Under the pieces are notes generated by a model that searched no databases, was not told the DNA's origin, and saw nothing but the letters and a program-made list of their open reading frames with translations. Position numbers and translations under genes: made by a program. Of a DNA stretch of 64,000 nucleotides, positions 20,801-26,800 are shown piece after piece (position 1 is the first letter of the stretch; each line of letters starts with the position of its first letter). Source of the DNA: Hormiphora californensis (lineage: Eukaryota; Animalia; Ctenophora); contig CM035357.1 of the NCBI GenBank assembly GCA_020137815.1, positions 3,038,001 through 3,102,000 on the forward strand, in the 5' to 3' direction.

Positions 20801-23800
20801 AGGTAAGAATCACTCTAGGGGGGTCTTGATATCATTATCAATCGTTTCCTTGCTACACTACACGAAGGTCCACTGTGGGGGTATATTGCCTTTACACTTA
20901 GAATCAACTGCTGGGTCGCAGGTGCAACTTTTCCCCCCGAATAAGTAGTATGATCAGATCCATAACTGCTAAATATTTTTCTAAATCCTTGACTCCTTCG
21001 CTAACACCGTGCTCTCAGGAGTTATAAGAGGATCATAATATTGGTATAAAACGAGATCAAGAGGAGAAATAGTTTGTGGATTTCTTGAGGATCTGTGGAC
21101 GATCTTTTTATCTCAGCGAACTAGGTAAGAATCACTCTAGGGGGGTTGTTCGGACGGATTCTGGTGGTGTATCACGTAGTATCTCAGATTGAGCTATTGA
21201 GATTAGCTGCGCATGTCACAAACATGGAGCTTACTCGACTCGAACTAGCACCCCATATATAATTTCATAATTTTTGGGTCTCGAGAACCAAGTATGATGG
21301 GATCGGGTCCGCATTGCCATGGGATGGGCGCTTGCGTATCGGGCGGTGGGGGGATCCGCTGTACTCACTCACATGACCCTGCGTTGTACGGAGCGCAATG
21401 TATTGCATTGCAGCTTCGGATGGTCCGGTGCTTGGTGGTAACCAGCCTAGAGAGCCAAGCACCGCAAGAACGGCCATCCTTAGTGGATCCGGTTACCAAT
21501 GGGTAGCAACTCAGGGGTGGGAGTGGCTGGGCGGGACTCCTCGCCTGCGGTGGCGCTTGTGTTCAGCTTTTTTCGTGGCAATATGGATTGATTCAGTAGT
21601 ATTGGAAAAATGTCTGTTATGATGAGGATTTGATAATCCAAAGTAGCAAAGTTAAATATTTTGGGAATAGCATCAGTTATAGAAGGAGGGTATGAAAATT
21701 TTGCCCAGGTCGAGATCCAGAGTAGTAGAGGATAGAGAGAGATGGATGCACTCATAGAAGTTGAGAGATCAGAGAGAGATCCAGCCGAGCATTGACATAC
21801 TGTGGGGATGGAGCAGCATTAGTAAATACACGTAGTAGCACTCAGAGCAACGGGATAGTGGGGAACGGTTAAGCAAGGGAGAGAGCTTGAATAATAGAAC
21901 GAAATATTTTGGTGGATCATTACAACAGAATTATATCTTTATGAGACTCATATTAAGCTGGACAACCAAACATTCGCCTTGTGTTCAATTTTTGGTCGTT
22001 GCCCGACAGGTCTCTTTCCAACTTGCACTCTATCTCCTTTGGTGCCGCCCACTTCCGATCCCACTGGCTGCCAAACAATACCCCATTGAGGGTCTTTGTC
22101 GGTACAAGATTCGGCTAGGGTACTAATCAGTAGGACTGCACCCATACAATACGTACTTTGACCTTGGGTGTCTTTCCACGGGGAGATCCCGTCTTAGGGG
22201 TTCGTCTATATAAAATGGGAAAGACTGGTATGGCTGGATGGACGTTTAGTTCTAACCCAAGGGACATGACTTTCATATCGAATTTTTGCACTCACACAAA
22301 CTTAACTCTAGGCCGAATAGCACACTCTGTGTGCGAATGCAGAGGTCCAGCTTTAAAGGTTAAAATAATATGTATATTATGCCAAAAACTAACAGAAATT
22401 AGTTTACTGGAAAGGTGACCACTTTTGTTGTCAAACTGACACCCTTACCCTCTCCGGGTTTCATCATTATCTTTCCCTTTCTGATTTCTCTCTGATTTCT
22501 CTCTGATTTCTCTCTGATTTCTCTCTCTCTCGCTCTCGCTCTCGCTCTCGCTCTCGCTCTCGCTCTCTCTCTCTCTCTCTCTCTCTCTCTCTCTCTCTCT
22601 CTCTCTCTCTCTCTCTCTCTCTCTCTTTCAAGGCGCGGTCTGCAGTCCGTTAGCCTGATGTCGCTACGACCGAAGAATCTCCAAGGTGACTCTCTCTCTC
22701 TCTCTCTCTCCCTCCCTCTCTCTGAGGGCCCGGAGGGCCTGTGGAGAAAAGGTAGGTAGAACAATGTACATATAGGGCTAAGTTGAACAATGTACTCTCT
22801 CTCTCTCTCTCTCTCTCTCTCCCCCTCTCGCTCTCTCCCTCTCTTCCTCTCTCTTCTTCTCTCTCCCTCTCTTACACACAATTAACCCGGGTCGGGCAAA
22901 AATTTCAGTTTGACAACAAAAGTGGTCACCTTTCCAGACCACTAATTTCGTTAAGTTTTTTGGCATAAAGGGAAGTAATTTTGATATCTCCTTCTGGTGA
23001 TCAACACACACGCCCTCTGTACAATAGTTTAATGGGGAATCCCACACATACACGGGCAGAACTCGGTTAAGGAGAGATTAATTAGTATTCTGAATAATGA
23101 GTTCAGAGCAAGAATTAAATAGGGAAGAAAATCGAAAAATACTGGGTTTGACCGGGAATTGAACCAGGGACCTCCAGAGAGACATGCTCGGAGCTATAAA
23201 CCACTAAGCTACCAAACCCTATACCCCATTGTTACTGATTCAGTTGCCATGGCAACCGTGTTATTGACGTTGTAAGAGGTGAAAAGAACCACCCGGCGTC
23301 TATATTATAATTTTGAAATGTCACGTCGAAGTGACCGTTCGTTGAGTGGTATCTAAGTGACAGACTGCTCCTTCATAAAACACTTTATATGCTCAAAGCT
23401 GTAAAGCACCCGAGTGGGTAACGCTGGCAAGGGATCTCATTGATTTTTTTGGACTAAAACGACACGAAAATTGATTAAAAAACTTTGTCTGCAATCGCTG
23501 TCTTCACTCTAAAATATAAACAACATCCGAAAAATAAACTTTAATTTCATGTGTGCTCACAAGTTCATTATAAAACGAGTTAAACCGTTCATTAGCGCTT
23601 GCTATATCATCTCTTGTCTGCTGCTGATTGAGGAAAGTATGAACATGCGGTATCTCATTGTCAAAACTTTCCCATAATTCTCGATTATATTCAGCATCAT
23701 CTTCATCATCTGACCAATCAGACCAGTTTTCTGCAATGAAGTTTCCTGGAATTATATCATCTTTTTTGTCTTCAGCCCTGGAACTATCAGTTGTAGACGA

Positions 23801-26800
23801 TGGGTGGGACATAATGTTAGTATTGTACACTTTTTGCATTGGAACTTCTCAGATATGAATTTATCTGCTTTATCGACTCTTCTGATTTTCTGATTTTCTA
23901 ATCCTTTGACGATGGACTTTGGCATTTTATAAAACGAGTAGTTATGAATTGTTTTAATGGCCTTTTTATATCATGTATTCCATGTTCACGTGTACGACGC
24001 GTTACTCTATTGTATCGCGTTACTATAATCACATGACATCATATGACATCACGTGAAAATATTAGTATTTCCCTGACACGATGTTTAGACATGATATAAT
24101 ACATAATTCCATAGTTATTCGGGGTCTGGCAAGCCCCCTCCCCCGGCCCGAATGTTTAAAACCAAACTCGACCCATCCCCGCTAAAAACGACGGGGTCGA
24201 GCCGACAGGCCCTTGAAATTACATGTAATTAAAGGGTCTAAATGACCCCAAATGATAATTTAAGCATGTTTCGACATATTTTGAGGTCCTGAGACCAGCG
24301 AATGGCTAAATTTAATCCGGTTTCGGCTGACATAAAAACTTTACGTTTTGGTCGAGTTAAAATTAAATATGAAATCATAGGTCATGTGTTATAACACACG
24401 TGCCATTGGCTACTATAATTGTGACGGCACAGGTTATCGTGCGTTATAACCACACATTATATTCACAGGTTTTCACGCGTTATTGTGGGTTATAAAACAA
24501 TTCCTTGGTTCCGGTACTGCTCATTTAGCGATGAAGCGCTCACAGTCAAGACATCGATTCGTATCTTGATTTACAATTAGGGACCTAAAGGGAGAGTTAA
24601 TTAAGTTTTCTTCATATCGAGATATTGTGTTAACATTACATATTCGTGGAGTATAAAAGGATTTATTTGTAAAATAATTCATTTTCTTTAACTATGGAAG
24701 TTGTTTCACTTAGTAACACGCCTTCTTACCGTCGTATGATTTTACAACACGGGAAAGGATTAGATAAAGAAGGTTATTACGTGTACGATCAAAATGGTGA
24801 AGGAGTGGGTGCAGTATTTTCGTCAATTTTACGTGGCGCTGTCCCTATACTTGCTCCTTTAGCAGCCGAGGGAGTGAAAAATATCGCCGACACAGTAGCC
24901 AAAAAAGCTATAAAAAGGGCAAGACGGACAAAATCACCTAATCATTCTTCTGAAAAACGTCAAACAAGTAAGAATAAGAGAGCTGCAGGAAGCCGTAAAG
25001 CGAGAGTATGAGGACTTTTAAGAATCTACCTGAAGCAATCTCAACAGACCTTCTGCTTTGGCAGAAACCGTCAACCAATAATAGGTTGATAACACCTATG
25101 AACTTAGGTCTATCCAAGGGAACTTTTTCCGGAAATGCTCCAGCAAGTTTCACAGTTCCTCCCCAACCACAGGGGATGCTTCAGGGTAGATATTGTTACA
25201 AAATTCGAAATACATAAAGGCACCGTAAAAGCTCCATCACTGAAAATGTTTCCATTATTAACACTTTTAATTCTCTCTGGGGATTGGTCGAAGTTAAGGT
25301 GTCCGATCGAGTAGACATTTGCAGAGCATGAGAACAGTTATGCAGTACATGTCTTATTTGATATTGTTTTAATACAGACCCGAATCGACTGATAATCTAA
25401 GGAAAGATCAGATCTTGTCATGGACTCCGGCATCTCAAAAAGAGACGCAAATGATGGACATTTTGCCGGTATTAGCAGAGATATGGGATTAATTATGATG
25501 ATCTAGATATTTACATCATGCAGTAAAGAGCTGCTGCTGGCCAAACAGAACAAAAGGCGAAGATCGCAAGATATAGTGAAAACGTATCTGGCATCAAAAG
25601 AAAAGGGCAACTTTTGAGGAAACTACAGTGGTCAGCAACACTCCTTGCCCTCCTTTTTCAACACCCCAAGGTTTTACCGCCAAATATGAGTATTAATATC
25701 AGCCTAACAAGAATCTTGACAGTTTTTAATTCGGCAAATATAGATACGGATGATTATTCGGTAAAATACCGACGTTCACCTAATTGCCTCGATATCTCCG
25801 TCCATCGAATGTATTTTTGAATCTTGTCGAGGAGCGTTAGCAATGAAGCAGCACCTTATACATTTCTAAACCGGAGATTATGTCACGCCTGTGGCACACA
25901 GGGTCGCATATTCGCCTAAATACCTGTTTCCTGATAATAAATACCACATCAGCATTCTTTTGCCTGCAGTTTACCAGAAGATTTTGAGGGACGCTTTAAA
26001 GGGAACCCATTTGCGTTTTTACCCATGGAACGTTTCCAAATTCATCTTGATGGGAAACCATATTTTGCTGACCCTATTACTACTGAAACTTATGAATCTA
26101 ATGGTAAAACTATATTCGATAAAAGTGGATCATTTTTACGACAGCTTTATGCGAGTATTGGTAAAAGTGAACGGGGAACCTGTTAATCAACTCTCTAAAT
26201 TTCAACAAACTTCATGGTTGGGTGTTCTTTCCAGCCCGGAAGAAATGGGGAATCCATGCATGGTTATCTATCACCTCAAATGGTTAGTTCGACTAGTTTG
26301 GAAATTGACACGAAAAAAACCTATAAAAGTGATATAGTTCTAATCATATATGCGGTTTACGATCGTTTGGTCAAAATCCATGGTGATAGATCTATTGATA
26401 TTGTGTGAAATGAACAGTCGTCTCTTAATCAGTTTTTAAAAACAATGACTATACCAAAAGGTATTTTCTAGGGACTTATCCAGCCTGTAAGGCACTGCAT
26501 CTAGAAAGAAAGTTGTTGTTTCATAACAAATACAGATGAACATGATAAACCAGGAAACATTGGGTGGTGCATGTTTGTCAGGGGTAAAGAAGTTACGTTT
26601 TTTGACTCATTTGGTCGCTCCCCGTTTAACAGTGCGTTCCCGCATGATTTTGTGGATTTTTCAGAGAAATTTAAAAAGTGTAAATTTGTTTCTAACCCAG
26701 TACAGACCCGGTTCCCGTGGTGTGGGTTACATTTATTCATTTTATTTTCATGATATGTGCAGGTCTAGATGTGGGGGATTTTTTGAAATTATAAAACAAG

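Follow-up and report, generated by a model that had tools for sequence, protein, structure and literature searches.

A conserved accessory gene of a ctenophore Polinton encodes a candidate protein phosphatase 1 adaptor without the PPP1R15 core

The DNA analysed here, referred to as the window, is a 64,000-nucleotide (nt) stretch of the comb jelly Hormiphora californensis (assembly GCA_020137815.1, contig CM035357.1, positions 3,038,001 to 3,102,000, forward strand). Its portion from ~23.4 to 37.4 kb is a Polinton/Maverick element in an animal genome and includes a small acidic open reading frame (ORF) of 111 codons (Table 1), a conserved accessory gene of such elements. The original prediction held that this ORF encodes a PPP1R15/ICP34.5-like factor counteracting translation shutoff, and the features from which it started, DWSDDEDD..RELWESF and the terminal KVYFSDVVYILE before the stop, were all present. 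Judging by its sequence, the product quite probably binds protein phosphatase 1 (PP1) through a C-terminal RVxF motif. The start ATG at 23839 was altered in contigs from two other runs; the homologues begin either with the following Met, giving 96-118 aa, or with MADNW/MDSDW, giving 76-90 aa. The AlphaFold model, of low confidence (pLDDT 60), comprised a short helix at ELWE (residues 53-57), a long helix (66-93) and an extended C terminus, and a fold search with it gave no match. Among the differences listed for copies of the ORF, 12/26 fell at third codon positions, a weak signal.

Homologue searches, a representative search and cluster look-ups gathered 25 relatives, giving a family of 26 sequences, many of them near-duplicates, in three clades (about 75%, 49% and 31% identity). 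The closest homologue was a Pleurobrachia bachei gene model, with 94% identity over 77% of the query. Two candidates were excluded from all counts, P0013 as a spurious 578-aa repeat protein and locus L001 as bacterial and in the wrong frame. A 13-row alignment showed as invariant the residues F..P, A-N, F-N, Y and the F-S of the RVxF block; F103 and S104 were kept across clades that are 31-49% identical. The predicted RVxF motif proved to be conserved in the family, being found at the homologous position in 25/26 sequences (22 strict and 3 with Leu). In these 25, [RK][VL]xF sits 19-20 residues after the invariant Asn, while the P0001 model diverges earlier. By comparison, 1.5-4% of the shuffles of each sequence yielded an RVxF-type motif with V or I at F+4 (counting from the motif Phe).

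A hydrophobic pair follows at about F+6/7 in clades 1 and 3 (14 sequences) and is missing in clade 2 (11 sequences); the FSEEVKIHYF of clade 3 reproduces the GADD34 spacing of this pair. At F+14, two of the three clade-3 members, P0014 and P0025, have Arg as the last residue and P0026 has Lys, whereas clade 1 ends earlier; Arg occupies that position in 7/12 viral PPP1R15 proteins. From the Phe to the C terminus there are 7-10 residues in clade 1, where the stop lies at about the same place throughout, 15 or 22 in clade 2, and 14 or 20 in clade 3. Since the RVxF-type motif holds the same position in 25/26 sequences and is mostly followed by hydrophobic residues, docking to PP1 is likely. No relatives were found in viral contigs, with the ORF family and the integrase as queries, or in JGI metagenomes, and Pfam, NCBIfam, PDB, BFVD and Atlas gave no usable match to the family.

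The predicted Polinton context was confirmed by an rve integrase, a type B polymerase and an ATPase with a Walker A motif. The set of protein-primed polymerase, integrase and packaging ATPase is thus complete, every one of them broken in this copy. In the polymerase region, Pfam DNA_pol_B_2 scored E=0.0037, below the cut-off, and Endonuclease_7 E=3.7e-5. Adenain-type protease and capsid fragments were placed, as an assumption, by position and characteristic motifs, and on the same grounds we take the first copy of the direct repeat to hold a small virion-type ORF and the start of a likely major capsid gene; a profile search for the capsid and protease fragments gave no match. The dominant contigs of run X5 lack many of the single-base indels that interrupt the core genes here (25000-32000); the frame breaks are therefore either specific to this copy or assembly errors.

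Table 1. Features of the Polinton and its accessory gene, in window coordinates
Feature	Position	Strand	Remarks
3' tail common to both arms	23419..23503	-	likely non-coding; no Trp codon; chance-level PPP1R15-core score
Small acidic ORF, candidate PP1 adaptor	23504..23839	-	111 aa; second Met at 23812
RVxF (KVYF, 23531-23542), V at F+4, hydrophobic pair, stop	23507..23542	-	RVxF-type motif at this position in 25/26 family sequences
AN[EK][RK]FNx[FY]Y, most conserved block	23570..23596	-	end of predicted long helix (66-93)
DW-acidic-ELWESF-x4-PH-x3-F module	23633..23719	-	likeness to PPP1R15B acidic stretch, helix H2 and docking loop, by eye, unscored
Overlapping upstream ORF	23752..23925	-	57 aa; CxxC..C..H pattern; TATA-like boxes at 23970 and 23931
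1.2-kb direct repeat, first copy	24558..25766	+	second copy 35656-36873, 96%
Packaging-type ATPase, in pieces	27436..27927	-	Walker A GQTGAGKT
rve integrase, broken	28036..28948	-	Pfam rve E=1.8e-13
Protein-primed type B DNA polymerase and endonuclease VII-like domain, broken	30270..33693	-	Pfam, PHROGs
5' remnant of the gene's short form	34023..34099	-	TATA at 34099, ATG at 34064, MADSWPDW, then divergence
Frame-broken inverted copy of the 3' part of the gene and tail	36874..37084	+	84-nt-deleted form also in other samples
Palindromic CACGTGAC-type repeats, candidate right terminus	37085..37364	+	end near ACTACT (37359-37364)

The gene had been placed in inverted arms of the element. An inverted copy does exist (23419-23611 against 37084-36890, 78% over 210 columns), but it spans only ~200 bp and is frame-broken: it lacks 84 nt and has three insertions (4, 2 and 11 nt) and a deletion of 14 nt in the tail. 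The 84-nt-deleted form also occurs in other samples, at a depth of 1049 in X5 and in one X16 contig. The long near-identical repeat of this copy is direct, not terminal inverted, and no matched terminal inverted repeats were found in this rearranged copy apart from those ~200 bp at 78%. The motif (ACT)2 is given as an element end in PMC8097293; ACTACT occurs 14 times in the window, and no left end matching the candidate right terminus was found there.

Contigs from other samples clarified how the gene is linked to the element. The 5' remnant matches the gene at 19/24 nt (23734-23711); apart from itself, nothing else in the window matched as well. Two other runs have contigs in which 24556 is fused to 34034 on the opposite strand (depth 1075 in X5 and 32 in X7), which places the gene arm next to the polymerase, and a 2,057-nt contig from organism B fuses the ORF (23502-23727) to 34055-34168. 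In other samples the gene is thus connected with either side of the element. This is what the original prediction would lead one to expect if the element were unrearranged, although this copy has no matched terminal repeats. As a rough sign only, the contig depth of the ORF was comparable to that of the core genes (527 versus about 300-2600 in X5; about 250-500 versus 150-590 in X7). Other copies lack positions 24152-24277, and the depth of 33924-34347 is likewise high.

The upstream ORF that overlaps the gene has a good start context and lies out of frame with it, and other copies carry deletions in this part; the overlap is reminiscent of stress-regulated upstream ORFs. On the other side, a very high-copy repeat piece (23224-23407) with an inverse copy at 55233-55442 abuts the gene tail, and a tRNA-Thr(TGT) identified with ARAGORN (23143-23219, minus strand) lies 285 nt beyond the ORF stop, within the very high-depth repeat region.

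Membership of the PPP1R15 family, for its part, failed the profile tests. Pfam PF10488 (PP1c_bdg) matched 0/12 family proteins and 8/8 core-bearing viral controls, six of the latter above the gathering score, and the R..W..RF..I core and the Trp after the Phe were both missing in 26/26 sequences. The viral comparison set consisted of 26 core-bearing loci from a motif scan, and these DP71L-type loci shared no gene with the element. A PDB sequence search with the family alone gave no match; a PPP1R15B entry retrieved at E=4.6 was set aside as not independent, because that search profile contained one of the viral loci, L011.

A weaker resemblance was found upstream of the motif. It concerns three loci, L021, L026 and L011, which we take, judging by size and sequence, to be long-form DP71L of African swine fever virus (ASFV; 184 aa) and canarypox CNPV231-type proteins. 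A profile-profile comparison matched the family to the long viral PPP1R15 proteins, collinearly up to the RVxF, with E=0.0023. In an anchored test that scored only the upstream region, leaving out the RVxF, against L021, L026 and L011, respectively, the score was reached by 0, 2 and 9 of 400 shuffles, by 0, 1 and 3 of 150 local shuffles, and by 0, 0 and 1 of 500 unrelated protein segments. Similarly, 44/44 segments upstream of unrelated RVxF motifs scored lower. The signal with L021 and L026 came from the 22 residues before the motif, a part whose score with L011 was reached by 9/500. The N-terminal 130 aa of L021 gave no PP1c_bdg match. This modest resemblance of the upstream region to the N-terminal portion of long viral PPP1R15 proteins is suggestive only, given that the test was post hoc and that two independent lineages are involved.

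On these comparisons, it is slightly favoured that the gene derives from a long PPP1R15, viral or cellular, of which it would represent the front half, and we tentatively propose that the product could serve as an eIF2-directed PP1 adaptor without the PPP1R15 core. A 65-111-aa product would dock host PP1 via the C-terminal RVxF and hydrophobic pair, and its acidic, Trp-containing N-terminal module would hold the eIF2/eIF2B machinery near the phosphatase, so that the adaptor would work without the actin/eIF2-alpha core of PPP1R15. Such a combination of substrate receptor and dock would be the opposite of short DP71L, in which the core alone is retained. Published work on PPP1R15B (R15B) offers some precedent: its helix H2 (477-481) contacts eIF2B-gamma and P486-A494 docks eIF2-gamma, mutation of either reducing capture (PMC7618491), and substrate recruitment by the middle region is independent of actin (PMC8633803). 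The weakest step of the proposal is eIF2 as the target, with relief of translation shutoff. The fully specified picture, a natural 'inverse DP71L' carried by a Polinton, with an eIF2/eIF2B-recruiting module and a PP1 dock but no actin-binding core, is rather doubtful.

A number of results weigh against an eIF2-directed adaptor. With hhalign, the profile match had a probability of 12.7%, and comparisons with single sequences stayed below 1%; when the RVxF was included, the HMMER score with L011 was reached by 44/500 shuffles (1/500 for L021 and 0/500 for L026). In the post hoc anchored test, L021 and L026 represent a single lineage, and the contribution of clade 3 is close to nil. PP1c_bdg is matched at 1.6e-10 even by the first 109 aa of L011, taken alone, but by none of the 12 family proteins. 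No PPP1R15 appeared among the 4 matches from 1.84 billion proteins or among 7,980 longer candidates, and BLASTP with L021 and L011 was not significant (E 4-17). The acidic-LWxSF module is missing in clade 3. Its acidic stretch, H2-like and PY-like parts are present in clades 1-2, with no clear equivalent of H1/FLKAW; H1 is described as the main eIF2-gamma anchor of R15B (PMC10998612). C-terminally deleted R15B and DP71L lose activity (PMC5346070 for DP71L), and published fragments of both that have no C-terminal part increase phospho-eIF2-alpha instead. RNA runs gave only partial, low-depth contigs of the gene region, and one run gave none, which speaks neither for nor against its transcription.

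The alternative that survives best, although it is still rather unlikely, is a PP1 adaptor for another substrate, such as a cell-cycle, transcription or antiviral-sensor protein, which would have arisen by convergence or been repurposed after loss of the core. The string of RVxF, hydrophobic pair and Arg is common to PNUTS, spinophilin and Phactr1 (PMC7599070); being general among PP1 partners, it does not alone point to eIF2. No role with eIF2 is known for ANxRFNxFY, the block that is conserved best, and the lack of both a profile match and, in clade 3, the R15B-like module fits another substrate as well. An adaptor directed at eIF2 is favoured instead by the collinear upstream match to the long viral PPP1R15 proteins, which exceeds the null, and by LWxSF-x4-P[HY] in clades 1 and 2.

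It is improbable that the product acts as a decoy or trap, binding PP1 and/or the phospho-eIF2-eIF2B complex without dephosphorylation and so raising or holding phospho-eIF2-alpha. A decoy would agree with the missing core in all family members and with two published observations: DP71L without residues 52-66 or LSAVL still binds PP1, while phospho-eIF2-alpha goes up or translation goes down, the form without 52-66 failing to dephosphorylate (PMC5346070), and the 411-511 fragment of R15B, like others without PP1 binding, is reported to trap phospho-eIF2, the C-terminal region being required for dephosphorylation on eIF2B. The overlapping upstream ORF of 57 aa might, speculatively, favour translation under eIF2 phosphorylation. 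Against a decoy, a double-stranded DNA virus with capped mRNAs generally gains more by lowering phospho-eIF2-alpha.

Equally improbable is a viral microprotein of unrelated function, in which the RVxF-like word would be a hydrophobic strand, conserved but without affinity for PP1. A loose RVxF turned up in 18-38% of shuffles by chance alone, the family has few members and little depth, and the databases searched gave no match; yet the position and spacing of the motif are kept in three clades while its neighbours vary, and the segment is predicted to be extended.

The remaining alternative concerns the 3' tail, where shifted frames past the stop had been read as remains of a CReP-like tail (DGCRFQKRIQE). 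Of the words reported, CRF and KINEI are present in both arms, whereas SEDSDCRQ is confined to the left arm, the right one reading SEDSDYNQ; moreover, the three left-arm words lie in three different frames and the right-arm words in two. The CReP-like reading had to be given up, with its pieces in different frames, no TGG codon in either arm and a core score at the level of chance. In frameshift-tolerant scoring against the viral PPP1R15 core profile, with 250 random element segments and two penalties, the left tail scored 6.6 (matched by 31/250 and 60/250 segments) and the right tail 0.7 (222/250 and 228/250), compared with 77.8 for a real PPP1R15 core. A search of all six frames of the window found no PPP1R15 core, the best score being 2.7 bits. 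Two further candidates were rejected: plus-strand WVTLARD just past the stop scored -2.7 to -3.4 bits as a core, below many random matches, and splice donor and acceptor words near the stop gave no consistent frame between the two arms, no Trp and no RNA joint. The stop and the tail frames are real and not an assembly error, because an organism-B contig covers them with 3 substitutions and no gap (none of the differences listed falls in the stop) and a 151-nt X12 record is identical to 23358-23505. Clade 2 has SC[RH]FSQK in frame at F+11; the RF of the core lies at +28 to +35 in 12 viral proteins. This word appears to be conserved as DNA, perhaps belonging to the element end. A full PPP1R15/DP71L-type protein, with its core either reached in the tail by means of recoding or a splice, or surviving there as a fossil, is thus largely refuted and highly improbable: the words common to both arms, the in-frame clade-2 word and the acidic residues with an Arg ~14 codons past the Phe in a shifted frame would suit it, but the tail has no Trp codon and scores at chance, the clade-2 RF is misplaced (and is HF in 2/11), the spacer varies between copies by non-triplet amounts, and the exact 151-nt record speaks against an error in the frames.

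Elsewhere in the window lie an intronless 603-aa MATH-BTB ORF (857-2668, plus strand) and an N-terminal exon of CFAP54 (60273-61613, minus strand), together with long hairpin-type inverted repeats at 3928-5181, 41654-42898 and 54743-55219 (arms of 615, 236 and 202 nt) and minisatellites at about 7.0-7.8, 37.8-38.2 and 54.1-54.3 kb. Outside it, two loci deserve mention in their own right. L016:611-910 (plus strand) lies in a viral contig of 7.8 kb that looks picornavirus-like, and has a PPP1R15 core at the N terminus of its long polyprotein. L031:1-1041 (minus strand), from a bacterial metagenome-assembled genome, encodes the full catalytic subunit of a eukaryotic PP1, in which a single TGA occupies a Cys position (euplotid code); it is likely a contamination.

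In agreement with the original prediction, which knew of no such cargo in Polintons, no description of it was found among the literature matches listed, where subscription journals are thinly covered. The main text of two surveys of Polinton/Maverick (adintovirus) accessory genes, whose supplements could list one, names no phosphatase regulator, and no paper with the term PPP1R15 in early-branching animals was among the literature matches listed. If the proposal of an eIF2-directed adaptor is true, no earlier modulator of the integrated stress response would have been reported in Polintons, and the gene would be evidence for such a conflict in comb jellies; it would also offer a natural test of whether a substrate receptor and a PP1 dock suffice without G-actin. 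A host-control gene would fit Polintons being real viruses. Even if the target is not eIF2, no description of any PP1-docking protein in Polintons turned up among the literature matches listed.

The known viral PPP1R15 mimics all retain the core, which is roughly 70 residues long and is called necessary and sufficient in PMC10998612; in contrast, the present family is kept in three clades without it, and would bear on whether eIF2 phosphatases owe their selectivity to G-actin or to the middle region (PMC8633803). With short DP71L, ICP34.5 of herpes simplex virus and PPP1R15A/GADD34, the family shares the spacing of RVxF and hydrophobic pair and the logic of small viral PP1-docking proteins, but it is without the C-terminal core that is defining and essential in these proteins. 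Unlike PPP1R15B, it has no clear H1 equivalent, no core and no membrane-binding N terminus, it carries one module instead of two repeats, and the likeness gave no significant score. By eye and with residues counted, however, repeat 1 of PPP1R15B/CReP resembles the module in having DW, an acidic run and LWNSF-x4-PY upstream of the RVxF; its LWxSF at 477-481, by our own count, corresponds to H2, with PY at +5/+6, where the module has P[YH]. The long viral PPP1R15 proteins run on into R-x-G-x-W...A.DR.RF..RI, whereas the family ends 7-22 residues past the Phe. Like the family, they are small viral proteins with an acidic/Trp stretch, RVxF and hydrophobic pair in that order. L011 has ELWxxF..PY..F, comparable to the ELWESF-x4-PH-x3-F of the module, and the long proteins place N-x-x-[WF] 20-21 residues before the Phe of the RVxF, close to the family, in which the Asn lies 19-20 residues before it.

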